Shown here in pieces: positions 22,273-36,542 of a DNA stretch of 60,240 nucleotides. A model generated the notes under the pieces. It searched no databases and was not told where the DNA came from. It saw only the letters and a list, made by a program, of their open reading frames with translations. The translations under genes were made by a program, and so were the position numbers. This DNA is from Myxococcota bacterium (GTDB lineage Bacteria; Myxococcota_A; UBA9160; PR03), in contig JBFIML010000026.1 of NCBI GenBank assembly GCA_041611735.1, positions 1 through 60,240 on the forward strand, written 5' to 3'. Within the stretch, counting starts at the first letter, position 1. Every line of letters begins with the position of its first letter.

Positions 22273-22654
22273 GACTTCGCTCGATCAGCTCGATCTTGTA
22301 GCCGTTCGGGTCCTCCAGGAAGGCGATCACCGTGGTGCCGTGCTTCATGGGGCCGGGCTCGCGCACGATCTTGCCGCCCGCACGACGGATGCGCTCGCAG
22401 GTGGCGTGCATGTCGTCCACGCCGACGGCCACGTGTCCGAAGGCGTTCCCGAGCTCGTAGTCGTGGACGTCCCAGTTGTGGGTGAGCTCGAGCACGGCCG
22501 TCTCGGACTCGTCGCCGTACCCCACGAAGGCCAGGGTGAAGCGGCCGCCCGGGTAGTCCTTCTTGCGCAGCAGCTTCATGCCGAGCACGTCGCAGTAGAA
22601 GCGCAGCGACGCGTCCAGGTCCATCACGCGCAGCATGGTGTGGAGCAGACGCAC
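22259..22654 (-). CDS. gloA: Lactoylglutathione lyase (glyoxalase I)
   Basis: [31 protein letters not shown]. Confidence 0.95.
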
Positions 22655-22702
22655 GCCGGCAGTCTAGGCCAGGGCACGGCGGGTCGCGGCGCCGGACCCG
22701 GG

Positions 22703-22732
22703 TTGACAGCCATGCGAAGAAAAAGCGAAAAT
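22703..22732 (+). promoter_or_regulatory. imuA promoter with operator-like 21-mer ATGCGAAGAAAAAGCGAAAAT
   Basis: TTGACA (22703-22708), 18 nt, GAAAAT. The 21-mer is 18/21 identical to the one upstream of dnaE2. Confidence 0.75.
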
Positions 22733-22737
22733 AAGGC

Positions 22738-23634
22738 GTGCCCCCGGGTCCCCACCCCCCTGCCGTGCCGGCCCGTGCGCCCGGAAGGGCGCCCGGGCCG
22801 GCGCGGGCCGAGCGGCTCGCAGCCCTGGTGCGCGACCTGGGGGATCGGATCCGCCCGGGAGGCCCCCGGGAGGAGACGCCGGGACGTCTGCCCACGGGGA
22901 TCCCCGACCTGGACCGTCTGCTGGCGGGAGGGCTCCCCCGCGGACGTCTCGCGGAGATCACCGGCGGCCCCGGCTCGGGCCGCACCGCCCTCGCCCTCAC
23001 GCTGCTCTCCGAGGCGACCCGTGGCGGAGAGACGGTGGCCGTGGTGGACGCCGCCGACGCCTTCGACCCGGTTTCGGCCACCGCGGCAGGGGTCGAGCTC
23101 CCCCGGGTGCTCTGGGTGCGCGCTCCGGGCTTGCGCGAGGCCCTGCGCAGCAGCGAACGCCTGCTCGAGGCCCGCGGCTTCGCCCTGGTGCTGCTGGACC
23201 TGTGCGGAGAGGGCCTCGGCCCGCGCGCGCGGGCGAGCGCCCGCGCGCGCAGCGAGGCGCAGCCGAGCGAAGTCCTCCGGCCGGGAGCCTCCGCGCCGCG
23301 CGGCAGTCCCGACCCGCGTCGCCTCGCAAGCCGGCGCCTTGCGCCGGCGCGCAGCGAGGCGCAGCCGAGCGAAGCTCCCTCGGTCTGGATGCGCCTGGCA
23401 CGACGCGCTCGAGCGACCGGCACGGTGCTCGTGCTCCTCACTCCCGTCCGTCGGGTCGCCACCTGCGCCGCCGTCGCGATCGAGATGCAGGCGGAGCCAG
23501 CGCGTTTCGTCGGACCGCCGGACTGGCTCGACGGTCTGGACGCGCGGCTGGTCCTGACGCGCAGCCGCTGCGGCCCGATCGGAGGCGAGACCGTGCTGCA
23601 GCTCCGCAGCGACCTCGCCAAGGACGCGACGTAG
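22738..23634 (+). CDS. imuA: ImuA (RecA-like mutasome accessory protein) with internal insertion
   Basis: PTGIPDLDRLLAGGLPRGRLAEITGGPGSGRT (Walker A K to R), VDAADAFDP, LVLLDL; directly upstream of imuB. Confidence 0.85.
   Translation: MPPGPHPPAVPARAPGRAPGPARAERLAALVRDLGDRIRPGGPREETPGRLPTGIPDLDRLLAGGLPRGRLAEITGGPGSGRTALALTLLSEATRGGETVAVVDAADAFDPVSATAAGVELPRVLWVRAPGLREALRSSERLLEARGFALVLLDLCGEGLGPRARASARARSEAQPSEVLRPGASAPRGSPDPRRLASRRLAPARSEAQPSEAPSVWMRLARRARATGTVLVLLTPVRRVATCAAVAIEMQAEPARFVGPPDWLDGLDARLVLTRSRCGPIGGETVLQLRSDLAKDAT
23245..23374 (+). repeat. Two identical 28-bp direct repeats inside imuA (23245-23272 and 23347-23374)
   Basis: GCGCGCAGCGAGGCGCAGCCGAGCGAAG twice, 102 nt apart, both encoding ARSEAQPSE. 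Confidence 0.9.
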
Positions 23635-23649
23635 CGCCCGGGGGACGCG

Positions 23650-25176
23650 GTGGTGCGCATCGGGTGCCTGCTGGTTCCCGACCTCCCCCTGGTGGCGGAG
23701 CTGCGGGCCCATCCGGAGCTCGACGGGCTTCCCCTGGCCGTGCTCTCGGAGCCCGGAGCCCGCGCCACGGTGCTGGCCGCCTCGCCAGAGGCCGTACGCG
23801 CCGGTGTGCACCCGGGCCAGTCCCTACTCCATGCGCGCGCCGTGTGCGCCGAGCTGCGGGTGCGCACGGCCTCTCCCGCCCTGGAACGGGCGGCGCAACG
23901 GGCGTTGCTCGACGTGGCACTCTCCGCGTCGCCGCGCGCCGCCGCGTCGCCGTCCGGCACCGGAGCCCACGGCGGCGAGGCGAGCGTCCTGCTCGACGCC
24001 GCAGGGGGGACCACACTCTTCGGCTCCGAAGCAGGGCTCGCCGGCGCGCTCACCGCCCGGGGCGCCGCCGTGGGTCTTCCGGCCGTGGCTAGCGTGGCCT
24101 CCTCACGCTTCCTCGCACGGCTCGCGGCCCGGTGTCTGGCCATCGAAGCGGAGCGCGGCAGCGTACGCGTCCTGACGCCAGACCAGGAGGCCGACTTCCT
24201 GGCGCCGCTTCCCGTCGATCTGCTCGATCCCGACGACGCACTCGCCGAGGCGCTCACTCGCCTCGGAATCCATCGCCTCGGCCAGCTGCTGGCGCTCCCC
24301 CGTCGGGCCCTCGCGACACGCCTGGGCCCGGGCGTGCAACGCCTCGTGGCCCGCTTGCGCGGCGAGGAGCACGAGCCCCTGCTGCCCCCTCCGCGCGACC
24401 GGCGTCTCAGCGAGGCGATCGAGCTGGAGGCTCCGGTGGAGCGCCTGGAGCCGCTCGCCTTCGTGCTGCGCGGCCTGCTGGCGCGGCTGCTGGCGCGCCT
24501 CAGCCTGCGGAGCCTCGCCTGCGGCGAGCTCGACCTCACCCTTGCGCTCGCCGACGGCGGCCGCGAGACACGCCGGCTCGGCCTGGCCGCCCCCACCCTG
24601 GACGCCCGCGTCCTGCTGCGACGCCTGCGCTTCGCCCTCGAGAGCGCCCCACCGCCCGCCGCCGTCGAGGGTGTGGGGCTCGCCACCGAGGGACAACCGC
24701 TGCGCGGCGATCAGCTCGACCTGTTCCGTCCGGCGGGCCCGGCTCCCGCCGAGCTCGATGCCCTGCTCGCCGAGCTCGAGGCGCTCTGCGGTCCCGGCCG
24801 CGTGGGGTCGCCGCGCGTCGCCGACGACCTGCGTCCCGACGCCTTCGACATGGGTGGGTTTCGGCCCGCTGCGGGGTGCTTGGCAACGCTACCGAGCGAT
24901 CCTCCCGGGCCGCGGCTGGCCGCCCGGGCTCTGCGCCCCCCGGTTCCCGCCGAGGTGCGGCTCCGTTCCGGGCGTCCCCGCTGGCTCCGGAGCGCCGTGG
25001 CCAACGGCGAGGTGGTGCACTGTGCGGGGCCCTGGCGCACCGCGGGCGGCTGGTGGTGCGCCGAAACGGGCTTCGACTTCGACCACTTCGACGTGCAGAC
25101 GAGCGACGGACTGCTCGTCCGGCTCCGCTGCGACCGCCGGCGGCACGCCTGGCAGGTGGACGCCGTCTACGACTGA
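23650..25176 (+). CDS. imuB: ImuB (inactive Y-family polymerase homolog)
   Basis: Y-family fold without the DxD catalytic motif, QLDLF beta-clamp motif, C-terminal GPWR..GGWW..D.FDV...YD. Confidence 0.88.
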   Translation: MVRIGCLLVPDLPLVAELRAHPELDGLPLAVLSEPGARATVLAASPEAVRAGVHPGQSLLHARAVCAELRVRTASPALERAAQRALLDVALSASPRAAASPSGTGAHGGEASVLLDAAGGTTLFGSEAGLAGALTARGAAVGLPAVASVASSRFLARLAARCLAIEAERGSVRVLTPDQEADFLAPLPVDLLDPDDALAEALTRLGIHRLGQLLALPRRALATRLGPGVQRLVARLRGEEHEPLLPPPRDRRLSEAIELEAPVERLEPLAFVLRGLLARLLARLSLRSLACGELDLTLALADGGRETRRLGLAAPTLDARVLLRRLRFALESAPPPAAVEGVGLATEGQPLRGDQLDLFRPAGPAPAELDALLAELEALCGPGRVGSPRVADDLRPDAFDMGGFRPAAGCLATLPSDPPGPRLAARALRPPVPAEVRLRSGRPRWLRSAVANGEVVHCAGPWRTAGGWWCAETGFDFDHFDVQTSDGLLVRLRCDRRRHAWQVDAVYD

Positions 25177-25216
25177 CCCTTGCCCTCCGCGCGTGACGTC
25201 GCTAAAAGCAGGAGCC

Positions 25217-25837
25217 ATGGCCCACCCCTCCCGCCTGATCAAGCGCCGCCGCCGCGCGGCCGACGACCCGCGCCTGCTCTTCTTCCGCAGCTTCCTGAGA
25301 AGCCCCAAGGAGGTCGGCTCCATCATCCCGAGCTCGCGCTTCCTGGAGCGACGCGTGGTCCGCAGCGCGGAGGTCGGAAGCGCCCGCAGCCTGGTGGAGC
25401 TGGGACCCGGCACGGGCGGCACGACCCGCGCCCTGCTCTCCGCCATGGCGCCGGACGCACGCCTGCTCTCCATCGAGATCAACCCGCGGCTCTCGAGCCT
25501 GGTGCGCACCCGCAACCCGGATCCGCGTCTCCTGGTGTACACCGGGAGCGCCGAGGACATCGCCAAGGCACTGACGGAGACGGGCCTCCCGGCCCCCGAC
25601 GTGGTGCTGTCGGGCATCCCCTTCTCGACGCTCCCGCGCCTGGTGGCCCTCGACATCCTGCGTGCGGTGCGCGACGTGCTCGTGCCCGGCGGGCGCTTCG
25701 TGGCCTATCAGGTGCGCGACCGCGTGGCCGTACTCGGACGACAGGTGTTCGGCCGCCCGAGCACCGAGACGGAGCTGCGCAACGTCCCCCCCATGCGGGT
25801 CTACCGCTTCGAGAAGCCCGCCGCCGAGCGGGTCTAG
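25217..25837 (+). CDS. Class I SAM-dependent methyltransferase (phospholipid N-methyltransferase-like)
   Basis: GSIIPSSRFL, VELGPGTGG, VLSGIPF, GGRFVAYQ; AGGAG SD. Confidence 0.85.
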   Translation: MAHPSRLIKRRRRAADDPRLLFFRSFLRSPKEVGSIIPSSRFLERRVVRSAEVGSARSLVELGPGTGGTTRALLSAMAPDARLLSIEINPRLSSLVRTRNPDPRLLVYTGSAEDIAKALTETGLPAPDVVLSGIPFSTLPRLVALDILRAVRDVLVPGGRFVAYQVRDRVAVLGRQVFGRPSTETELRNVPPMRVYRFEKPAAERV

Positions 25838-27087
25838 CCCGGCTCTTCGTCGCGCTCCCGCTCGTCCCCGCGCTTGTTCTGCCAAGTGAGGCCCGCGCGC
25901 GCCGGTTCGCGGGCTCCGGCGCGGACCACCGCCTCCCCGCCGAAGCGGGCTGCGATCGCGTCGAGGGCGCGGTTCAGGCGCGAACGGCGGGCCGCCTCGC
26001 CGGGGGCAGCGAAGAGCCCGAGCTGGCCGCGCCCCACCCGGACGAGTCCGGTCACGCCCACACCAAGCAGGCGCACGGGCTCCTGCGGGACCTGCTCGAG
26101 CAGGTCGCACGCCGCCTCGCCGATGCGTCCGCCGTCCTCGGTGGGCTCCGCCAGGGTCCGGCGACGCGTGAGGAGCGGATGGCCCCGCCGTCCCGCTCCA
26201 CGCCGCCCACCGAGCTTCACCTTGACCACCACGGTCTGTGCGGTCAGACCGGCACGGCGTAGCCGTCGTGCCACCGCGTCCGCGTGCGCGAGTAGGGTCG
26301 CCCGCAGCCGTTCGGGGTCGCTCACGTCCTCCTCGAACGTGTTCTCCTCGCTGAGCGAGACCGGATCCCGGTCCGGCTCCACCGGGCGCCGGTCCTCGCC
26401 CCGGGCGAGACGCGCCAGCTCGAACCCCAGGCTCCCGAGCAGCGCCCCGAGCCGCTCCGGCTCCGCCCGGGCGAGGTCACCCAGCGTGGCGAAGCCTGCC
26501 CCGCGCAGACGCGCCTCGGCCACGGGTCCCACGCCCCACAACCGGCCCACGGGCAGCGGATCCAGAAAGGCGCGCGTCGCCTCCGGCGGCACCTCGACCA
26601 GGCCATCGGGCTTCGCGGCCTGGCTGGCGAGCTTTGCCACCATCTTGTTGGCGGCGATCCCCACCGAGACGGGCAGATCGAGCTCCCGTCTCGCCATCGC
26701 GCGCAGGCGCACGCCCACTTCTCGCGCAGGGCCGAACAGCCTTTGCGTCCCGGTGAGGTCCAGGAAGGCCTCGTCGAGGGAGAGTCCCTCCACGCGCGGC
26801 GTGAAGCGCCGGAAGATCTCGAAGAGGCGTCTCGACTCCCGCGTGTACTTCCTCATGTCGCCGCGCAGGAACACGCCCTCGGGACAGCGGCGCCGCGCCT
26901 GGGCCGTCGGCATGGCGGAGTGCACTCCGTAGCGACGCGCCTCGTAGCTGGCGGCCGACACCACGCCCCGATCCGAGAGGCCTCCCACGATCACGGGCCG
27001 GCCCCGCAGCTCGGGGCGATCCCGCTGCTCTATGGACGCGTAGAAGGCGTCCATGTCGGCGTGCAGGATGACACGGGGAGCCGACAC
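25834..27087 (-). CDS. dinB: DNA polymerase IV
   Basis: HADMDAFYASIE, SYEAR, LSLDEAFLD, KPDG, QLGLF clamp motif. Confidence 0.95.
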   Translation of the reverse strand: MSAPRVILHADMDAFYASIEQRDRPELRGRPVIVGGLSDRGVVSAASYEARRYGVHSAMPTAQARRRCPEGVFLRGDMRKYTRESRRLFEIFRRFTPRVEGLSLDEAFLDLTGTQRLFGPAREVGVRLRAMARRELDLPVSVGIAANKMVAKLASQAAKPDGLVEVPPEATRAFLDPLPVGRLWGVGPVAEARLRGAGFATLGDLARAEPERLGALLGSLGFELARLARGEDRRPVEPDRDPVSLSEENTFEEDVSDPERLRATLLAHADAVARRLRRAGLTAQTVVVKVKLGGRRGAGRRGHPLLTRRRTLAEPTEDGGRIGEAACDLLEQVPQEPVRLLGVGVTGLVRVGRGQLGLFAAPGEAARRSRLNRALDAIAARFGGEAVVRAGAREPARAGLTWQNKRGDERERDEEPG

Positions 27088-27176
27088 CTGAGCCCTCGTC
27101 GCGTGCGCGTCACCGCCGCGCTGCGAGAGAGCCTATGCTTTCCCGAGGCCCCGAACAACGGGCCGAGGGAGTCGCG

Positions 27177-28229
27177 ATGGATCGGGAGGTCGTGCGCGCG
27201 TTCATGGAGCGATTCATGGACATGACCACCCACGCCGCCCTGCTCGGCGTGGTCGGCGCCGCGGACCGGGCGGGCCTGTTCCGTGCGCTGCAGGGCGCGG
27301 GAGCCCTGCCCTTGGAGGCGATCGCGGCGCGCAGCGGCCTGGACCCGCGCTACCTGCGCGAGGCGCTGGCGGCGCTGGCCGCCGGCGGCTTCCTGCGCTT
27401 CGACCCGGACGCCGCGACCTATGCCCTGCCCGACGAGCACGCCGTCTGCCTCGCCGACGAGTCGAGTCCCTGGTGCCTGGTGGGCTGGACGCAGATCCTC
27501 GGCGCCCTCTACCGGGCCGTCCCAGCGGTGTCGCGCGCCTTCCGGGAGGGAGGCGGCGTCTCCTACGAGCAGTTCGGCGAGGACATGGTGGAGGGCATCG
27601 ATCGTGCCAACGGCCCCGGCACGCGGATCCTGCTCACCCGCCGCTGGCTGCCGGCCATGCCGCAGATGGTGGAGACGCTCGAGCGGGGCGGCCGCGTGGC
27701 GGACGTGGGCTGCGGCTCCGGGACGGCGGCGCTGGCCCTGGCCCAGGCCTTCCCCCGCTCCGTCGTGACGGGCTACGACGTGGACCTGCGCTCCATCGAA
27801 CGGGCCCGGGCGGCGGCCTCCGAAACCGGCCTCGCCAACGTACGCTTCGAACGGGTGGCCGCCGAGTCCCTGCCCACCCGCCCGGGCTTCGACCTGGTGC
27901 TGGCCTTCGACGTGATCCACGACCTCGTGAATCCGCGCGCCGCCCTACGCCGCATCCGGCTCTCCCTGCGGCCCGCGGGCAGCTTCCTCCTGGTGGAGCC
28001 GGCGGCGGGCGACAGCCTGGAGGAGAACCTGGATGCCCACGGCGCTCTCCTGTACGCCCTGAGCACGCTGCACTGCACCACCGTCTCCCTGGCCCACGGC
28101 GGCGAGGGGCTCGGCGCAGCCTGGGGACCGAAGCGGGCGGAGGCGCTCTGCCGCCAGGCGGGCTTCACGCGCTTCCGCCGCCTCGCCATCGAGAATCCCT
28201 TCCACGCCTTCTACGAGGTCGCAGCCTAG
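27177..28229 (+). CDS. Class I SAM-dependent methyltransferase with N-terminal winged helix (Rv2258c-like)
   Basis: RYLREAL wHTH, VADVGCGSG, FDVIHD, HCTTVSLAHGGEGLG. Confidence 0.85.
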   Translation: MDREVVRAFMERFMDMTTHAALLGVVGAADRAGLFRALQGAGALPLEAIAARSGLDPRYLREALAALAAGGFLRFDPDAATYALPDEHAVCLADESSPWCLVGWTQILGALYRAVPAVSRAFREGGGVSYEQFGEDMVEGIDRANGPGTRILLTRRWLPAMPQMVETLERGGRVADVGCGSGTAALALAQAFPRSVVTGYDVDLRSIERARAAASETGLANVRFERVAAESLPTRPGFDLVLAFDVIHDLVNPRAALRRIRLSLRPAGSFLLVEPAAGDSLEENLDAHGALLYALSTLHCTTVSLAHGGEGLGAAWGPKRAEALCRQAGFTRFRRLAIENPFHAFYEVAA

Positions 28230-28287
28230 CGGCGAGGCTCCTGCCGCCCGCTGTGCCGCGGGATGCGTCGCGGTATGGTCCCGCGCC

Positions 28288-30105
28288 GTGAGTGGAGCTG
28301 CACCCAACGCCGCACGGGGGGCCGCCCCCGCCGCGGGCGTGCGCTGGGACCTCTCGGACCTGTATGCGGGTCCCGACGACCCGGCGCTCACCCGCGATCT
28401 GGAGCGCGCGCTCGACGCGGCCCGCGCCTTCGAAGCGCGCTATCGGGGACGGGTCGTGCATCTCGACGCGGCGGCGCTCGCCCGGGCCGTGGACGAGCTC
28501 GAAGCGCTCGAGGAGCCGGTCCACAAGGCGGCCTCCTACGCGAACCTCCTGTTCTCCGCGGACACGGGCGCCCCACGCCATGGCGCGTTGCTCCAGCACG
28601 TCCAGGAGCAGAGCAGCGAGATCCGCAACCGGCTGCTCTTCTTCGAGCTCGACTGGGTGGGTCTCGACGAGGAGCGTGCCCGGCGACTGCTGGCGGACCC
28701 GGCCCTGGCACGCCGCCGTCACTTCCTGACGCTGCTGCGCCGCTACCGGCCCCACCGGCTCTCGGAGCCCGAGGAGCGCATCCTCGAAGCGGCGGCGAAC
28801 ACGGGCCCTCGAGCCTTCGGCCGCCTCTTCGACGAGAGTCTGGCGGCCCTGCGCTTCCGCGTGGAGCGGAACGGACAGGTGGAGGAGCTCGGCGAAGAGG
28901 AGGTGCTCGCGGGCCTGTACGAGCCCGAGCGGGCCGTGCGGCGCGCCGCCGCCGCCGGCCTCACCCGGGGCCTGCGCGAGAACGCGCGGCTGCTGGCCTT
29001 CGTCTTCAACGTGCTGGTGCAGGACAAGGCGTTCCGGGACCGTGTGCGCCGCCACACGGATCCCATGGCGGAGCGCCACCTGGCCAATCAGATCGCGCCC
29101 GCCAGCGTGGAGGCGTTGCTCACCAGCTGCGAACGCCGCTTTGGGCTGGTGGCCCGCTACTACCGGCTCAAGGCCCGGCTGCTCGGCCTCGCCCGCCTCG
29201 AGGACTACGACCGCTACGCCCCCGTGGCGGCGCCGGGCGGCTCCCGCTCCTTCGCGGCGGCGCGCCAGCTCGTGCTGGAGGCGTACGCCGAGTTCTCCCC
29301 GGAGATGGCCCACATCGCGCACCGCTTCTTCGAGGCGAACTGGATCGATGCGGAGCTGCGGCCCGGCAAACGGGGGGGCGCCTTCGCGTCTTCCACGGTG
29401 CCGAGCGTCCATCCCTACGTGCTCCTCAACTACACCGGGAACCTGCGCGACGTCATGACCCTCGCCCACGAGCTGGGCCACGGCGTCCACCAGTATCTGG
29501 CCCGGGAACGGGGTCTCTTCGAGCAGGACAGCCCGCTCACCACCGCCGAGACGGCGAGCGTGTTCGGCGAAATGCTGGTGTTCCGGCGCCTGCTGGCCCA
29601 GGAGCGGGATCCGGCGGTCCGTCTCGGCCTGCTGTGCGGCAAGCTCGAGGACGCCTTCGCCACCGTGTTCCGGCAGGTCGTGATGACCCGCTTCGAGCAG
29701 CGCCTCCACGCGGCGCGCCGGGAGGAGGGGGCGCTCGCGCTGGAGCGGGTGAACGAGCTCTGGCTCCAGGCGAACCGTCCCATGTTCGGGGACTCGGTCC
29801 GGCTCAGCGACGACTATGGCTGGTGGTGGCTCTACGTCCCGCACTTCGTCCACAGCCCGTTCTACTGCTACGCCTACGCCTTCGGCGAGCTGCTGGTCCT
29901 GGCCCTGCTGCAGCGCTACGACGAGGAGGGCGCCGCCTTCGTACCGCGCTACCTGGAGCTGCTGCGCGCGGGCGGTTCCGCCCCGCCCCAGGAGCTGGTG
30001 GGCCGTGCCGGGCTCGACGTGGCCGATCCGGCCTTCTGGGAGCGCGGCCTCTCGCTCCTGGAGGGAATGGTGGAGGAGGCGGAGGGGTTGGCGGCGGCGC
30101 GTTGA
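28288..30105 (+). CDS. M3 family oligoendopeptidase F
   Basis: WDLSDLY, GKRGGAF, HELGH zinc motif, AETAS, HF..PFYCYAY. Confidence 0.93.
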   Translation: MSGAAPNAARGAAPAAGVRWDLSDLYAGPDDPALTRDLERALDAARAFEARYRGRVVHLDAAALARAVDELEALEEPVHKAASYANLLFSADTGAPRHGALLQHVQEQSSEIRNRLLFFELDWVGLDEERARRLLADPALARRRHFLTLLRRYRPHRLSEPEERILEAAANTGPRAFGRLFDESLAALRFRVERNGQVEELGEEEVLAGLYEPERAVRRAAAAGLTRGLRENARLLAFVFNVLVQDKAFRDRVRRHTDPMAERHLANQIAPASVEALLTSCERRFGLVARYYRLKARLLGLARLEDYDRYAPVAAPGGSRSFAAARQLVLEAYAEFSPEMAHIAHRFFEANWIDAELRPGKRGGAFASSTVPSVHPYVLLNYTGNLRDVMTLAHELGHGVHQYLARERGLFEQDSPLTTAETASVFGEMLVFRRLLAQERDPAVRLGLLCGKLEDAFATVFRQVVMTRFEQRLHAARREEGALALERVNELWLQANRPMFGDSVRLSDDYGWWWLYVPHFVHSPFYCYAYAFGELLVLALLQRYDEEGAAFVPRYLELLRAGGSAPPQELVGRAGLDVADPAFWERGLSLLEGMVEEAEGLAAAR

Positions 30106-30126
30106 GCCGCGTCGCCGCCGGGCGGC

Positions 30127-31476
30127 TCACCCGGGCGGCCGAGCCAGGAACGCCTGGCGGGCGTCGCTGCGCAGGGTGTCCAGGTCCCCCGGACGTACCG
30201 GCTGTCCGTTCACTTCCAGGCGCCCCGCATCGTAGCGGACGTGCGTCGCGTAGTTTCCCTCCTCCAGCACGAGCAAACCGCGCTCCACGAGGCTCGCCAG
30301 GCGTCGACGCGCCTCGGCCCGGCTGTCCACGCTGGTCGGGTCGGTTTCCCGCAACCCTTCGGCGAACTCCTGCTCCAGCAGGACCACCGGCACGCGGGCC
30401 CGGGCGTCGGCGACGAGCGCCGTGGGCGAGAGCATGGACAGCGCGTCGCCCTCGTCGAGCTGCACGGACCCTTCGAACTCCACGGGACCCTCGACGGTGG
30501 CGAAGGCGCCCCGCAGCTCGAACTCCGCGTTGGCGAGCAGCTTGGGGATCGCGGCCAGGATCTCGAGCCGGGCCGTCAGCGCCCCCGCGTCGTCGGAGGC
30601 GGACTCGCTGGCCCGGGCTCCCTCCACGAGACGTGCCAGGGACGCTGCATCGAGCTGGCGCAGGGCCAGCTCGAGCGAGCCACCCGCGTGCGCGACCTCG
30701 CCCCGGACGAGCGCCCGGTAGGAAAGGGACGCGAGCGAGTCGACGCTCCCGTCGTGCAGGGTCTGGCTCTGCTCGAGCTCGAGTCCGTCGACGCGGAAGG
30801 CGCGCGTGTCTTCGGAGGCCTCCACGGCCAGGGTCGCCATGCGCAGGCGGAGCTCGCCCAGGGGCAACCCGTGGCGGCTCTCCCGGTATTCGAAGTGCGC
30901 CTGGACTCCGTGGGCGCTCACGCCTGCCTCGGGGCCACCGACGTGGAGCAGCGACGCGACCAGCTCGCCGGCCAGACGCCGGGACGGGGCTTCGAAGCGA
31001 AGCGTCCCCCGGACGTCCTCCCAGGCCAGGGCGGGTGTGGGGACCGCCGCGTCCCAGGGCAGCGAGACGAAGCGGGTCGTGGCGCGGCCGGCCGCATCGA
31101 TCACCGTCTCCGCCCGCAGCAGGGGCAGCCCGCCTTCGGGCAGCTGCGCGATCGCCTCGCTGTGGACGACGGCGAGCACGGGGCCCGCCCGCCAATCACC
31201 CCACGCGATCGGGCCGGGGGCGATGTGGTCGCGGATCTCCAGGACCACCGCCTCGCCGGGCGCATCCGTCTGCGGGGGCAGCCGGAGGCGGGTGGTCGCC
31301 TCGGCGCGCAGCCAGCCGCGCCGGTAGCTGCCCTCGACGGCCAGGGGAGCGAGGGCCTGGCCCAGCCAGGCCTGCCAGGCTCCATGGGCACGCTCGGCGC
31401 GCCGGGCGCCCCAGCACCAGGCGCCAGCCGTCGCGGCGAGGGCCGCCACCAGCAGCGGGACGACGAGCTTGCGCAC
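30127..31476 (-). CDS. YdgA/DUF945 family protein
   Basis: N-terminal anchor ending WCWG, SYRRGWL, I..GP, C-terminal GRLEVNGQP. Confidence 0.7.
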   Translation of the reverse strand: MRKLVVPLLVAALAATAGAWCWGARRAERAHGAWQAWLGQALAPLAVEGSYRRGWLRAEATTRLRLPPQTDAPGEAVVLEIRDHIAPGPIAWGDWRAGPVLAVVHSEAIAQLPEGGLPLLRAETVIDAAGRATTRFVSLPWDAAVPTPALAWEDVRGTLRFEAPSRRLAGELVASLLHVGGPEAGVSAHGVQAHFEYRESRHGLPLGELRLRMATLAVEASEDTRAFRVDGLELEQSQTLHDGSVDSLASLSYRALVRGEVAHAGGSLELALRQLDAASLARLVEGARASESASDDAGALTARLEILAAIPKLLANAEFELRGAFATVEGPVEFEGSVQLDEGDALSMLSPTALVADARARVPVVLLEQEFAEGLRETDPTSVDSRAEARRRLASLVERGLLVLEEGNYATHVRYDAGRLEVNGQPVRPGDLDTLRSDARQAFLARPPG

Positions 31477-31582
31477 GGAGTCTCCCGTGAACCTCCGGGG
31501 CGGCGCCCCGCCGCGGGGCCGACGGCAGCGGGCCTCCGCCCGGGGAGGCGAATCGGCCCCCGGGCCCAGCGGCTTGAGGCCG

Positions 31583-32929
31583 TCAGGCGGCGGGCCGCCC
31601 CGCCTCCGCGCCACCCGTCAGGTGGCGACCGATCTCGGTGGCGGCGCGCATCCCGCTCGTCACGGCCATCTCGAGCCAGGGACCGAGCAGGTAGTCGCCG
31701 GCGAAGGCCAGGCGGGGCGATCGCTCGCGGCGGGCCTGGAAGGCGCGCAGGCGTGCCAGCGTGCCCGGCTCGAAGTGGGGGAGCAGCGGGTCCCAGCGCT
31801 GCACCAGGAACTCGCTCGGGGACACGCGTCCCACGGGCGTGCGAGCGAGGGCATCGAGGGCGTCCTCCGCCACCGCCGCATCCGGCGCCCACCACAGACG
31901 GTTCGACGCCTCGGCCGTGAGGGTCAACTGCAGCAGGGCCGTACCGGGGGGAGCGACGCCGGCCGTGCGGTGTCCCACCAGCAGGGAGCGCAGATCCAGA
32001 ACGCTGCGGCGCCGGAAGCCCACCGCGTGGCCGGGCAGGGACGGGGGCTCCTTGTCGAGCAGGAGCGCCACCACGATGCCGCGGCCGTAACGCACCCCCT
32101 CGAAGAAGGCGCGCTCGCCCGGCGTCAGGCCGGGACACAGGGGCGGCACCCGCACGCCGGGCACGGCCACCACCGCGGCGTCGGCCAGCAGCCTCCCCTC
32201 CCCGGCGTGGGTGCGATACAGCACGCGAGCCCCGTCGGGCGCCGTCTCCACCCGGATCGCCTCGCAGCCGGTGCGCACGGAGACCCGTTCGGCGAGCACC
32301 CGGGGCAGGAGCCCCATCCCGCCCTCGAACGCGAGGCGCGGCGCCCCATCCCCGAGCGCCCCCAGCGCGGCCAGCGCGAACGAAGCGGAAAGGTCCTCGG
32401 GCGGCGTGTCGAGCAGCGCGGCAAAGCGCGGCTGGATCAGCTCCTCGAGCGCCTCCCGCCCCGCCGTGCGCTGCAGCAGCCGCGCCAGATTCTCGCGGTC
32501 GAGGGACGCGGCAAGCTCGGGCCGGTAGGCATCCAGGCGACGCCCGCCCCGCAGCCGCTCCAGCTCGAGACGCCACAGCCGGACGCGGGCGCCTCGGGAG
32601 AGTGCCCGGGCACCCAGCCAGGCGCGTCGGGGGCCGAGCACGACGGGCTCGAAGCCGGTCCGGGCGACCCGGGCCACGTCACTGCGGGCAAGGGGGCGCA
32701 GGCGGGCACCCAGCCCGAGGGCGTCGGCGAGGCGACGCACGTTGCGGTGCCCGGCGGACACCGAAGAGGCCCCGGTGTCGACGGCGAACTCGCCGCGGGC
32801 TTCGGTGCGCACGCGGCCACCCGCCCGCGTCTCCCGCTCCAGCACCTCCACCTGGTGACCGGCCCGCACCAGGCGCCAGGCGCAGGTCAGGCCCGCGACG
32901 CCGGCTCCCACCACCACCACCGACGCCAC
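31583..32929 (-). CDS. FAD-dependent oxidoreductase (HemY/amine-oxidase-like)
   Basis: VVGAGVAGL, E...AGGR, DTGA, FAGDY...EMAVTSG. Confidence 0.82.
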   Translation of the reverse strand: MASVVVVGAGVAGLTCAWRLVRAGHQVEVLERETRAGGRVRTEARGEFAVDTGASSVSAGHRNVRRLADALGLGARLRPLARSDVARVARTGFEPVVLGPRRAWLGARALSRGARVRLWRLELERLRGGRRLDAYRPELAASLDRENLARLLQRTAGREALEELIQPRFAALLDTPPEDLSASFALAALGALGDGAPRLAFEGGMGLLPRVLAERVSVRTGCEAIRVETAPDGARVLYRTHAGEGRLLADAAVVAVPGVRVPPLCPGLTPGERAFFEGVRYGRGIVVALLLDKEPPSLPGHAVGFRRRSVLDLRSLLVGHRTAGVAPPGTALLQLTLTAEASNRLWWAPDAAVAEDALDALARTPVGRVSPSEFLVQRWDPLLPHFEPGTLARLRAFQARRERSPRLAFAGDYLLGPWLEMAVTSGMRAATEIGRHLTGGAEAGRPAA

Positions 32930-32931
32930 GG

Positions 32932-33321
32932 CTAGCCGACCTTGCGGGGCCCGAGCACGTCCTCGAGGGCCCGCACGAGCGCGGCGGGTGCGAAAGGCTT
33001 GCGCAGGAAGATGCCGTCGCCCTCGGCCAGCTCGCGCTCGAGCTCCGGCGCGAGCGACGTCCCGCTGGTGAGCACGACGCCCACCCCCGGCCGCCGGCGG
33101 CGGATGGCGCGCAGCGCCTCGCCCGCCCCGGCGGGTGGCATGTTCGCGTCGAGAAGCACCACGTCCACGTCGGGCCGCTCGTCCACGGCGCGGACGGCCT
33201 CGTCGCCGTCGGCGGCGGTCAGGACCTCGAAGCCCTGGGGCGCCAGGATCCGGGCGGTGAGCTTGCGGAGCAGGGGTTCGTCGTCGCCCACGAGGACCGT
33301 GGCACGCGGGGGGGGCGGCAT
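32932..33321 (-). CDS. Single-domain response regulator (CheY-like)
   Basis: VLVGDDE, LLDANMP phospho-Asp, TSG, LRKPF. Confidence 0.9.
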   Translation of the reverse strand: MPPPPRATVLVGDDEPLLRKLTARILAPQGFEVLTAADGDEAVRAVDERPDVDVVLLDANMPPAGAGEALRAIRRRRPGVGVVLTSGTSLAPELERELAEGDGIFLRKPFAPAALVRALEDVLGPRKVG

Positions 33322-33361
33322 GGCGGGGATCATACTCCCGGAGCGGGGAGGCGCCGAATGC

Positions 33362-33390
33362 TTGCCGGAATGCGAATAAAAGACGAAAAT
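33362..33390 (+). promoter_or_regulatory. dnaE2 promoter with operator-like 21-mer ATGCGAATAAAAGACGAAAAT
   Basis: TTGCCG (33362-33367), 17 nt, GAAAAT; near-copy of the imuA upstream element. Confidence 0.75.
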
Positions 33391-33401
33391 CGGCCTTCAT
33401 C

Positions 33402-36400
33402 GTGTCGGACTACATCGAGCTGCGGGCGAGCAGCGCCTTCTCGTTCCTGGAGGCCGCGTCCAACCCCGAGGACCTGGTCGACCGCGCGGCGGAGCTCGGC
33501 CATTCCGCCCTGGCCCTGGCCGATCGCGACGGCCTCTACGGAATCCCCCGCTTGCACCAGGCGGCCCGGCGCGCCGGCCTGCGTGCTCTCGTCGGCGCGC
33601 GCCTCCGGGTGACCGGCCGGCCCACTGGAGAGCTCCTCTTTCTCGTCGAGTCGCAACGCGGGTACCGGAACCTCTCGCGACTCCTCACCCGCGCCCAGGC
33701 CCGCGGCGCCAAGGGCCAGGCATGGGCCACGTGGGAGGAGGTGGAGGAGCACGCCGCGGGCCTCACGGTTCTCCTGCACGGCGACGCGCGCCTGGCCCCC
33801 GGCCTCCTCGACCGGGCCCTGGGCCTCTTCGGGCGTCACCTGTGGGTGGACGTCGCGCGCCACTTCGACCGTGTCGCCGAAGCGCAGGCGCGTCGCGCCG
33901 TCGCCCTGGCCGAGGCCCGGGGCGTCCCGATCGTGGCGACCAACGACGTGCGGCACGCGACGCCCGAAGGCCGTCGCCTCCTCGACGTCTTCACCTGTCT
34001 GCGCGAGAAGACGACGCTCGACCGCGCCGGGCGACGACTCTCCCCCAACGCCGAGCGGCATCTCCACGCACCCCGGGTCATGGCGGCGCGATTCGCCGAC
34101 CATCCGGAGTGGGTGCGGGCCACGCGCAGCGTCGCCGAGCGCTGCGCCTTCACGCTCGCCGACCTGGGCTACCGCTTCCCCACCTTCCCGGTGCCTGCCG
34201 ACGAGACCCAGAACTCCTGGCTGCGGCGCCTCGTCGCCGCCGGCGCCCGGGAGCGTTACGGCCCCGCCCCGTCGGCGCGGGTGCGCGCCCAGCTCGAGCG
34301 CGAGCTCGCCGTGATCGAGAAGCTCGACCTGGCCGGCTACTTCCTGATCGTGCACGACATCGCCCGCTTCGCCCGCGAGCAGCGCATGCTCGCCCAGGGG
34401 CGCGGCTCCGCCGCCAACAGCGCCGTCTGCTACGCACTGGGCATCACGGCCGTGGATCCGGTGGGGATGGAGCTCCTGTTCGAGCGCTTCCTCTCCGAGG
34501 AGCGCGGCGAGTGGCCCGACATCGATCTCGACCTTCCCTCCGGAGAGCCCCGTGAGCGGGTGATCCAGTACGTCTTCGACCGCTACGGATCGCACGGCGC
34601 CGCCATGACCGCGGTGGTCATCACCTACCGCTCACGCCTCGCCGTGCGCGAGATGGGCAAGGTGCTCGGTCTCGAGGCCGGCGCGATCGACCGGCTCGCC
34701 CGCGTGCTCTCGGCCCTGGGCCACCGGGAGGGAGCGGACGACCTGCGTGGCCTGCTCCGCCAGGGCGGCGTCGACCCCGACGCCCCGCGCGTAGCGATGC
34801 TCCTCGAGCTGGCGGAGCGCGTGCAGGGCCTGCCGCGCCATCTGGGCCAGCACACCGGCGGCATCGTGATCGCAGCGGGACGCCTCGACGAGGTGGTGCC
34901 GATCGAGCCCGCCTCCATGCCGAACCGCCGCGTGATCCAGTGGGACAAGGACGACTGCGCCGATCTCGGGATCATCAAGATCGACCTGCTCGGTCTCGGC
35001 ATGCTCCGGGCGTTGGAGGAGACGATCCGCCTCGCCGGCGAGAACCAGGGCGTGGCTCTCGACCTGGCCGGGCTCCCGGCCGACGACCCGGCGACCTACG
35101 CCATGATCCAGCGCGCCGACACCATGGGGGTCTTCCAGATCGAGAGCCGGGCCCAGATGGCCACGCTGCCCCGCATGAAGCCAGCACGCTTCTACGACCT
35201 CGTGGTGGAGGTCGCCATCATCCGCCCGGGCCCGATCGTGGGCCAGATGGTGCACCCCTATCTGCGGCGGCGCGCCGGGCGCGAGCCCGTCGTCTACCCC
35301 CACCCCTCCCTCGAGCCGATCCTGCGCCGCACGCTGGGGGTCCCGCTCTTCCAGGAGCAGCTGCTGCGCATCGCCATGACGGCCGCGGGCTTCTCCGGCG
35401 GCGAGGCCGAGGAGCTGCGCCGCGCCATGGGCTTCAAGCGTTCCCGCGAGCGGATGGCGCGCCTCGAAGCGCGCCTGCGCCAGGGCATGACGGCGCGTGG
35501 CCTCGTGGGCGAGGTGCAGGACCGGATCGTCCTCGGCATCACCTCCTTCGCCCTCTACGGCTTTCCGGAGTCCCACGCCGCGAGCTTCGCCCTGATCGCC
35601 TACGCCTCGGCGTATCTGAAGGCCCACCATCCGGCGGCCTTCCTGGCCGGGCTCCTGAACGCCTGGCCCATGGGCTTCTACGCGCCGGCCTCCTTGGTGA
35701 AGGACACCCAGCGCCACGGCGTCGTCGTGCTCCCCATCGATGCGACCCGCTCCGACTGGAAGTGCACCCTGGAGCCCTGGCCCCCAGAGCGCGGCCGGGA
35801 GGGTTCGCGAGCAGCCATCCGGTCGGCGCAACCGGCGCTGCGGCTCGGGCTGCGCTTCGTGGCCGGGCTGCGCGAGGCGGCCGGGCAGGCCATCGAGGCC
35901 GAGCGCCGTCGCGCTCCCTTTGCCAGCGCCGCCGACCTGGCGCGCCGCGCGCGCCTGCGCCGCGCCGAGCTCACGACCCTGGCCGAGCTCGGTGCCCTCG
36001 CCTCCCTCGACCCGGCGGGGCACACCCGGCGCGCGGCGCTCTGGCAGGTCACCGCCCTCGAGCGCGACCCCCGCTCGCTCTTCGCAGGCGTCCCACCCTC
36101 CGCCGGACCCTCACCGCTCCCGGAGATGACTCCCCTCGAAGAGACCCTGGCCGACTACCGGACCAGCGGCATCACCACCGGGTGTCAGGTGATGGCCCAC
36201 CTGCGCCCGCGGCTGCGGGCGCGAGGCGTGCGTAGCGCAGCGGAGCTCCGGGCGATCCCGGACGGCCGCTTCGTGCGGACGGCGGGGCATGCCATCGTCC
36301 GCCAGCGACCGGGCTCCGCCAAGGGCTTCTGCTTCCTCACCCTGGAGGACGAGACCGGCACCTCGAACGCCGTCCTGACGCCCGACACCTACCGCCGCTT

Positions 36401-36542
36401 CCGCGTGCCCCTCCACGCCGCGGCACTCCTCGAGGTGGCGGGGCCGCTCCAGAACGTGGAGGGCGTGATCCACGTGCGGGTGCGGGAGCTGGTACCGCTG
36501 CACCCGCGTCGGGACCTGCCCCCCTCCCACGACTACCGCTGA
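33402..36542 (+). CDS. dnaE2: Error-prone DNA polymerase III alpha (DnaE2/ImuC)
   Basis: 1046 aa; degenerate PHP start, GRGSAANS, PDIDLD, KIDLLGL, YGFPESHA, C-terminal SHDYR (variant of the DnaE2 SRDF motif). Confidence 0.95.
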   Translation: MSDYIELRASSAFSFLEAASNPEDLVDRAAELGHSALALADRDGLYGIPRLHQAARRAGLRALVGARLRVTGRPTGELLFLVESQRGYRNLSRLLTRAQARGAKGQAWATWEEVEEHAAGLTVLLHGDARLAPGLLDRALGLFGRHLWVDVARHFDRVAEAQARRAVALAEARGVPIVATNDVRHATPEGRRLLDVFTCLREKTTLDRAGRRLSPNAERHLHAPRVMAARFADHPEWVRATRSVAERCAFTLADLGYRFPTFPVPADETQNSWLRRLVAAGARERYGPAPSARVRAQLERELAVIEKLDLAGYFLIVHDIARFAREQRMLAQGRGSAANSAVCYALGITAVDPVGMELLFERFLSEERGEWPDIDLDLPSGEPRERVIQYVFDRYGSHGAAMTAVVITYRSRLAVREMGKVLGLEAGAIDRLARVLSALGHREGADDLRGLLRQGGVDPDAPRVAMLLELAERVQGLPRHLGQHTGGIVIAAGRLDEVVPIEPASMPNRRVIQWDKDDCADLGIIKIDLLGLGMLRALEETIRLAGENQGVALDLAGLPADDPATYAMIQRADTMGVFQIESRAQMATLPRMKPARFYDLVVEVAIIRPGPIVGQMVHPYLRRRAGREPVVYPHPSLEPILRRTLGVPLFQEQLLRIAMTAAGFSGGEAEELRRAMGFKRSRERMARLEARLRQGMTARGLVGEVQDRIVLGITSFALYGFPESHAASFALIAYASAYLKAHHPAAFLAGLLNAWPMGFYAPASLVKDTQRHGVVVLPIDATRSDWKCTLEPWPPERGREGSRAAIRSAQPALRLGLRFVAGLREAAGQAIEAERRRAPFASAADLARRARLRRAELTTLAELGALASLDPAGHTRRAALWQVTALERDPRSLFAGVPPSAGPSPLPEMTPLEETLADYRTSGITTGCQVMAHLRPRLRARGVRSAAELRAIPDGRFVRTAGHAIVRQRPGSAKGFCFLTLEDETGTSNAVLTPDTYRRFRVPLHAAALLEVAGPLQNVEGVIHVRVRELVPLHPRRDLPPSHDYR

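Follow-up and report, generated by a model that had tools for sequence, protein, structure and literature searches.

The window analysed here, a stretch of 60,240 nucleotides (nt) from a Myxococcota bacterium (GTDB lineage Bacteria; Myxococcota_A; UBA9160; PR03; GenBank assembly GCA_041611735.1, contig JBFIML010000026.1, positions 1 to 60,240 of the forward strand), carries the genes of an error-prone polymerase system, the mutasome, in two separate pieces. The accessory gene imuA and the polymerase-like gene imuB form one operon, the error-prone polymerase gene dnaE2 (imuC) lies downstream under a promoter of its own, and 8 kb of unrelated genes part the two halves. Each half is preceded by a copy of the same short direct repeat, CGAA-N7-CGAA. 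This repeat is the subject of the present report: it is very probably the LexA (SOS) operator of this lineage, with LexA as the predicted binder.

A direct repeat before both halves of the mutasome

The two elements, ATGCGAAGAAAAAGCGAAAAT before imuA-imuB (22712-22732) and ATGCGAATAAAAGACGAAAAT before dnaE2 (33370-33390), are identical at 18 of 21 positions. Their CGAA words stand at 22715-18 and 22726-29 in the imuA copy and at 33373-76 and 33384-87 in the dnaE2 copy, with a period of 11 base pairs (bp) in both, and the imuA copy has a G+C content of 33% compared with 72.3% for the genome. An earlier note, made from the letters of the window, had pointed to the shared 21-mers, to their AT-richness and to the direct repeat, and all three descriptions are accurate. 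Its account of the promoters needs small corrections only: the hexamers TTGACA, TTGCCG and GAAAAT are all present, TTGACA being located at 22703-22708 and the spacers measuring 18 and 17 nt. Both elements thus occupy the spacer and the -10-like hexamer of a sigma-70-like promoter, and the imuA promoter is the sole sigma-70-like match within 22400-33600 (10 of 12 hexamer positions, with the 18-nt spacer).

The GTG start codon of imuA lies 5 nt past its -10-like hexamer (window 22727-22740) and that of dnaE2 11 nt past its own (window 33385-33404), and neither is preceded by a Shine-Dalgarno sequence. Given these distances, the imuA-imuB and dnaE2 transcripts are probably leaderless or nearly so. 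The same short arrangement of hexamer and start, again with no Shine-Dalgarno sequence, recurs in many imuA and dnaE2 orthologues.

Allowing at most one mismatch, CGAANNNNNNNCGAAAAT (CGAA-N7-CGAAAAT) matches the window twice where 0.09 matches are expected, and two or more matches were seen in 0 of 100 shuffles. The whole assembly (4,086,371 bases in 118 contigs, 72.3% G+C) yields just these two window sites for CGAA-N7-CGAAAAT. The bare CGAA-N7-CGAA occurs 98 times in the genome, so the core alone is not rare. To score sites I used a 24-nt matrix derived from 19 imuA sites, all of them from other genomes, and a second matrix of 22 nt. Across the 8.2 M positions of the window's own genome the matrix of foreign imuA sites places the dnaE2 site first (38.2 bits) and the imuA site second (36.7 bits); with the 22-nt matrix they reach 34.9 and 33.1 bits, respectively. 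At 20 bits or more there are five hits in the real genome versus one in a reversed-genome control, which agrees with the expectation that the motif should be uncommon in unrelated promoters.

The coordinates of the genes and promoter elements are collected in Table 1. The insert between the halves holds a full-length dinB, further genes and, among the listed hits of either matrix, no operator match. By inspection and in the hit lists of both matrices, the short region upstream of dinB likewise has no operator.

Table 1. Genes and candidate regulatory elements of the mutasome locus (window coordinates)
Feature	Position	Strand	Evidence or remark
-35-like hexamer TTGACA, imuA-imuB promoter	22703-22708	+	18-nt spacer to GAAAAT 22727-32
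Candidate operator 1, ATGCGAAGAAAAAGCGAAAAT	22712-22732	+	last 6 nt (22727-32, GAAAAT) also serve as -10-like hexamer
imuA (RecA-fold accessory protein)	22738-23634	+	Pfam PF00154 1.7e-13
imuB (Y-family polymerase-like, IMS), in operon with imuA	23650-25176	+	Pfam PF00817, PF11799
8-kb insert parting the mutasome halves	25180-33361	.	Pfam
dinB (Pol IV), full-length, inside insert	25834-27087	-	Pfam
Winged helix-turn-helix methyltransferase in insert	27135-28229	+	Pfam
Open reading frame (ORF) of 1075 amino acids in insert, no Pfam match	28263-31490	+	
Amine oxidase plus receiver-domain gene in insert	31583-33333	-	Pfam
-35-like hexamer TTGCCG, dnaE2 promoter	33362-33367	+	17-nt spacer to GAAAAT 33385-90
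Candidate operator 2, ATGCGAATAAAAGACGAAAAT	33370-33390	+	GAAAAT 33385-90 is the -10-like hexamer
dnaE2 (imuC), error-prone polymerase, DNA polymerase III alpha-type	33402-36542	+	Pfam PF07733 6e-77 plus further domains

Conservation at imuA, dnaE2 and lexA

The element is conserved at both mutasome promoters in a sample comprising the window's genome and 40 further genomes of the same order. Orthologues of imuA are present in 38 of these 41 genomes, and a site of at least 18 bits was found in 26 of 29 imuA loci. For dnaE2, where the count takes in only loci that include the N-terminus (n=24), 22 loci carry a site that reaches 24 bits or more and begins no further than about 90 nt upstream. 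The dnaE2 orthologues share 62-83% identity across the order and are distinct from dnaE1, which stands at about 35%. The spacing relative to the promoter is also maintained: TTGAC or TTGCC is found at the identical offset in 20 of the 22 gene-strand dnaE2 sites, and TTGAC occupies the same place in most of the imuA orthologue loci.

Public imuA loci (L005-L027) give a similar picture. The closest of them come from metagenome-assembled genomes (MAGs) labelled Myxococcota or Deltaproteobacteria, and in 19 of the 23 loci CGAA-N7-CGAA lies closely upstream of the gene, nearly always 5-7 nt past TTGAC. One further locus (L010) has a near variant and three (L017, L026 and L027) are without the repeat. 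In the imuA-like loci of two alphaproteobacterial MAGs, Verrucomicrobia and others (L026-L040) the positions of weak matches show no readable box.

Pooling 54 sites gives the consensus wGGCGAAAanAAGrCGAAArTc, in which the invariance of CGAA is partly built in, the sites having been chosen with a CGAA-favouring matrix. GAA is followed by C in 9 of the 54 first units and in only one of the 54 second units, the C before GAA is invariant, and the units of the window read GAAG/GAAA and GAAT/GAAA.

In 20 genomes, the window's own included, imuA and dnaE2 are located on one contig and strand, with their starts 2.4 to about 18 kb apart, and in 19 of the 20 the cassette is split. The sole relative with contiguous imuA, imuB and dnaE2 is G009 (C81:25373-31001), whose dnaE2 has no separate operator and accounts for one of the two dnaE2 loci that lack a site. 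Thus, it seems that a split cassette with two operators is the rule in this order. Near-identical promoters on the same strand are what duplication would be expected to leave in such an architecture, and G009 retains the unsplit form; the window copies might then be alike only as the relic of a promoter that was copied when dnaE2 separated from imuAB, with no present function. I regard this as extremely improbable, because the inserts differ in length among genomes of the order (about 1.5 to 15 kb) and their flanks are not alike, the positions of the repeat are maintained across 12 families at 62-83% DnaE2 identity, and the same words are present at lexA.

The genome has one lexA (G000:C107:1737-2336; profile match of 181.7 bits, above the cut-off), and the site GGCGAAAGGGAAGCGAAGAT (G000:C107:1710-1733, minus strand) lies 2 nt before its GTG start, ranking fifth genome-wide (18.1 bits with the 24-nt matrix, 21.3 bits with the 22-nt matrix). 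The repeat recurs 2-35 nt ahead of the lexA start in all five members of the family examined. In the order, 28 of 30 lexA loci, all but L054 and L058, have a site of at least 14.9 bits in the 300 nt before the gene, and an exact CGAA-N7-CGAA, on either strand and within 250 nt upstream, is present in 29 of 30 loci compared with one of 30 from other Myxococcota. The lexA site also occurs, at 28.6-31.5 bits, in all three genomes examined from another family of the class. When aligned to E. coli LexA (3jso), the encoded protein retains the Ala-Gly at which LexA is cleaved as well as the catalytic Ser and Lys, and so looks functional.

The placement of these copies bears on whether the shared sequence is merely promoter, that is, a lineage-typical spacer and -10 hexamer for a housekeeping or alternative sigma factor, in which a repressor plays no part. 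The copies at imuA and dnaE2 run forward with the gene, between TTGAC and the start, their offset from TTGAC is fixed, and the 3' end of the repeat is the only -10-like hexamer, all of which would suit a promoter word. At lexA, however, the copies sit at other offsets, and 23 of 32 are inverted, typically as TTGACTTTCGCC-N5-TTTCGCC, with the -35 hexamer, TTGAC, overlapping the first unit. In two Acidobacteriota imuA loci (L018 and L019) the repeat is downstream of a separate -10 hexamer (TATGAT/TAAAAT), in some relatives copies fall inside the codons of pgpA, and there are only about 3-5 sites per genome. With orientation and offset differing by gene in this way, the repeat appears to behave as an operator rather than as a promoter word, and it is very unlikely that promoter function by itself accounts for the likeness.

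A different candidate for a LexA box upstream of lexA was rejected. The inverted repeat TTGGCACTC-N9-GAGTGCCAA (G000:C107:1565-1591; L001:1329-1355) lies between the minus-strand groES and lexA and is assigned to the divergent groES as an element of the CIRCE (controlling inverted repeat of chaperone expression) type. It resembles the CIRCE/HrcA heat-shock operator. The groES-lexA neighbourhood is also found in relatives of the family.

Co-variation with LexA and comparison with known boxes

The motif is lacking in all 50 lexA loci examined from other Myxococcota: 30 loci from other orders score at most 15.1 bits with the repeat matrix, and a further 20 from other families at most 9.4 bits. 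Upstream of lexA, GTTCAG/CTGAAC, the half-site of the M. xanthus box, is carried by 26 of 30 other Myxococcota, compared with 2 of 30 genomes of the order. The predicted recognition helix of LexA changes along with the motif. S(V/L)ATVHKH, the helix of the class, is paired with the present motif, STNGVNDH of other Myxococcota with GTTCAG, and SKSGIHRL of two alphaproteobacterial genomes with GAAC-N7-GAAC; the corresponding helix in E. coli is SPNAAEEH. The class-type helix also occurs in two Acidobacteriota (Vicinamibacterales and Bryobacteraceae) and in one unclassified MAG, and these three lexA promoters, of the TTGAC..TATAGT type, contain TTCG-N7-TT(C/T)G (25.4 bits), TTCT-N7-TTCG (34.1 bits) and TTCGCC-N5-TTCGCC (14.5 bits).

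The clade of LexA follows the same division. In a quick maximum likelihood tree of 66 LexAs, the 35 proteins of the class form one clade (Shimodaira-Hasegawa-like approximate likelihood ratio test, SH-aLRT, 96), which joins these three Acidobacteriota-type LexAs (SH-aLRT 90) apart from 26 other Myxococcota LexAs (SH-aLRT 99). The two alphaproteobacterial LexAs have a long branch of their own; since no other sequences root the tree, their distance alone is informative and I draw no direction of transfer from it.

The earlier note had proposed that the element is the site of a lineage-specific LexA or of another DNA-damage regulator coordinating the mutasome halves. Conservation at the orthologues, the copies at lexA and the co-variation with helix and clade support that proposal, and comparative genomics points to LexA as the binder. 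The operator would have the form of a head-to-tail G-R-CGAAA repeat with an 11-bp period and an A-rich spacer. A LexA dimer seated on the spacer and -10 hexamer would exclude RNA polymerase from the imuA-imuB and dnaE2 promoters; upon DNA damage, RecA-stimulated self-cleavage of LexA would free both promoters together, and ImuA, ImuB and DnaE2 would be made simultaneously despite the unrelated genes between the two halves. The third copy, on another contig just ahead of lexA, would provide for autoregulation. For a dimer to read a head-to-tail repeat its N-terminal domains need to be flexibly tethered, as is assumed for the alphaproteobacterial box.

Several observations weigh against this interpretation. 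Scoring sites are missing from 3 of the 29 imuA loci (L262, L280 with 16.3 bits, and L283 with just 192 nt of sequence), from 2 of the 24 dnaE2 loci (L096 with 9.9 bits and L099 with 9.2 bits) and from 2 to 3 of the 30 lexA loci, and the site sets scored with the 22-nt matrix overlap in part its own training sets. The lexA site of the window's genome falls in an ambiguous score range, the reversed-genome control having one hit of 22.4 bits, and its weight therefore comes from its position and conservation. The genome's recA has no site within 5 kb, and among 30 recA loci of relatives no site reaches 18 bits within either 300 nt or 1.5 kb. A LexA paralogue from another Myxococcota family (L300, genome G079) has the similar helix SLATVHRH and no scoring site. 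A search of sequencing runs listed no RNA run that contains this DNA. Finally, the levels of DnaE2 and ImuB in Myxococcus xanthus do not depend on LexA, and dnaE2 has the XRE regulator DdiA as its activator (PMC12288472).

Control of the mutasome by something other than LexA thus exists in the phylum, and a different damage regulator, XRE-type and DdiA-like or WYL/PafBC-like, might bind the repeat and control lexA together with the mutasome. The M. xanthus case favours such a regulator, and no DdiA site is known (PMC12288472); recA is not directly preceded by the motif, and the identity of the binder comes from comparing sequences. However, the motif follows the LexA recognition helix and clade across phyla, and it stands at lexA in 28-29 of 30 relatives, where other Myxococcota carry the known LexA box. 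A regulator other than LexA is, on this evidence, unlikely, and LexA remains the preferred binder.

Direct-repeat LexA motifs are already known from Alphaproteobacteria, Acidobacterium capsulatum and Balneolaeota (PMC7739468), and by its letters the CGAA-N7-CGAA element is a register-shifted variant of this known type, not a wholly new operator class. The alphaproteobacterial (Caulobacter) box is GTTC-N7-GTTC, as given in three sources (da Rocha 2008 in Table 1 of PMC9578287; PMC12700426; PMC8565304). Both are two-unit direct repeats with an 11-bp period, an A/T-rich spacer and the core TTC-N8-TTC, and both are found in SOS promoters including that of imuA-imuB-dnaE2. They differ in that the conserved word is shifted by one base, a G following TTC here in every site (TTCG; CGAA on the other strand), and in the LexA helix, which is SKSGIHRL in Alphaproteobacteria and SVATVHKH here. 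This is the relation that had been proposed in the earlier note, namely the same geometry with a different sequence, and the alphaproteobacterial lexA promoters that I fetched, which carry GAAC-N7-GAAC, score at most 9.3 bits with the repeat matrix.

For Acidobacterium capsulatum, Mazon et al. in 2006 reportedly described the LexA box as GTTC-N7-GTTC. It too is a direct repeat bound by an acidobacterial LexA, and two other Acidobacteriota lexA promoters carry the present motif, but the word reported for it is GTTC and not TTCG. The Gram-positive Cheo box of B. subtilis and S. aureus, CGAAC-N4-GTTCG (Table 1 of PMC9578287), has the half-site core CGAA in common with the present element but is an inverted repeat with a 4-nt spacer, whereas here the CGAA words are head-to-tail with 7 nt between them. 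LexA loci of Micromonospora, Dormibacteria, Rokubacteria, Oscillospiraceae and Nitrospirae genomes, fetched for a comparison of helix and box with the Gram-positive types, were left out because of their uncertain start positions. The LexA box of M. xanthus, CTRHAMRYBYGTTCAGS (Campoy 2003, cited along with gel-shift probes in PMC9705874), belongs to the same phylum and likewise autoregulates lexA, but its sequence and symmetry differ, and its GTTCAG half-site is absent from both window promoters. That box is not reported at imuA or dnaE2 in the accessible parts of PMC9705874 and PMC12288472. The Balneolaeota motif TTACACATATTTTWTACATA, derived from lexA promoters and comparative genomics and confirmed by electrophoretic mobility shift assay (PMC7739468), is a direct repeat found by the same logic, and its sequence is unrelated to the present one.

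Literature searches of openly readable papers turned up no published description of CGAA-N7-CGAA or TTCG-N7-TTCG as a LexA motif, and within the same scope nothing relevant on a direct-repeat LexA motif in Deltaproteobacteria or Acidobacteria or on the SOS response of Myxococcota. A LexA-regulated imuA-imuB-dnaE2 cassette is said to have been described by Abella in 2004 and Erill in 2006. The same three genes stand under a LexA-type operator there; here the cassette is split, and dnaE2 has its own promoter and what would be its own copy of the operator.

LexA is unusual among bacterial regulators in that its binding motif has changed repeatedly, and every further motif, taken with the LexA that reads it, sheds light on the way in which a dimeric repressor can switch between inverted and direct repeats. 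Within this one phylum motif, helix and LexA clade change together, which offers a clean natural comparison with the M. xanthus type. It is quite possible, if short of probable, that CGAA-N7-CGAA is an undescribed motif of a single LexA lineage that has S(V/L)ATVHKH as its distinguishing helix and is shared by an uncultured, largely marine class of Myxococcota and by Acidobacteriota. As a further step, lexA would have crossed phylum borders and the promoters of imuAB, dnaE2 and lexA would have been rewired to that lineage, and the remaining Myxococcota would have retained the box of the M. xanthus type and in part passed control of the mutasome to DdiA. Because the motif combines the half-site core of the Cheo box with the head-to-tail geometry of the alphaproteobacterial box, it could be a living intermediate in the long-discussed shift by which LexA came to recognise direct repeats instead of palindromes. 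It may also be that the box published for Acidobacterium is this very site in a register shifted by one base.

Predicted regulon and minor sites

In the window's own genome only imuAB, dnaE2 and lexA are convincing members of the regulon, which looks tiny. The motif would thereby set the SOS regulon of this uncultured Myxococcota class, consisting in this genome of the error-prone polymerase system and lexA, and this fits the view, taken in PMC7739468, that what the SOS response conserves at its core is translesion synthesis. The earlier note had also suggested a test for enrichment upstream of recA, lexA and other repair genes; the motif is present at lexA, as described above, and for recA, uvr and ruv genes no enrichment was found in the own genome. 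A candidate operator before the own recA, TGAA-N6-CGAA, has the wrong period and was rejected.

Three other high-scoring sites of this genome were not counted in the regulon. The first (G000:C72:4075-4098, plus strand; 24.1 bits) is located within the 3' end of an ORF on the minus strand, where the GC content is lower. The second (C32:4057, that is, G000:C32:4036-4057, minus strand; 20.5/23.5 bits) covers the start of a small ORF rich in Lys and Arg, next to a tRNA 3' end, and this ORF may belong to an integrated element. The third (C27:37397) is part of a coding sequence.

The pattern SCGAA-N6-RCGAAAR has 42 matches in five relatives compared with 9 in the reversed control. The matches with A/T-rich spacers precede imuA, dnaE2 and lexA and also the genes of a radical-SAM protein, an Smr-domain protein, a PD-(D/E)XK/DEAD helicase, and a HigB toxin, so that the regulon of these relatives looks like an SOS regulon. 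With the matrix, predictions of SOS genes become feasible for MAGs of this class and for many Acidobacteriota. Directly behind an operator of the TTGACTTTCGC type lies the gene of a protein of about 490 amino acids that has no Pfam match, with three paralogues in G006 (L161, L168 and L171) and one copy in G001 (L163). The HigB-family toxin gene (L167, genome G007) lies in a lower-GC stretch behind a strong copy of the operator.

Further upstream of recA, 12 of 20 relatives (L240-L259) have a site of at least 18 bits at a distance of 2.0-2.7 kb, heading the pgpA/cinA...recA stretch. In G001, G012, G021, G029 and G009 this site is located within pgpA codons (e.g. those for IFVLFSP) and uses TTA and TTT, codons seldom found in genomes as GC-rich as these.

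An operator-like site of 17.1 bits (G000:C15:49846-49867, minus strand) lies about 95 nt upstream of mraZ, beside MraZ repeats of the TGGGA type, and may represent a link between the SOS response and the cell-division operon. Among the mraZ loci of relatives, 6 of 30 score 14 bits or more, and 4 of 30 reach 18 bits.

As for the Myxococcota genome G079, it has three lexA matches, and the promoter spacer of its SLATVHRH paralogue, between TTGAAC and TATCCT, holds just degenerate TCG repeats.

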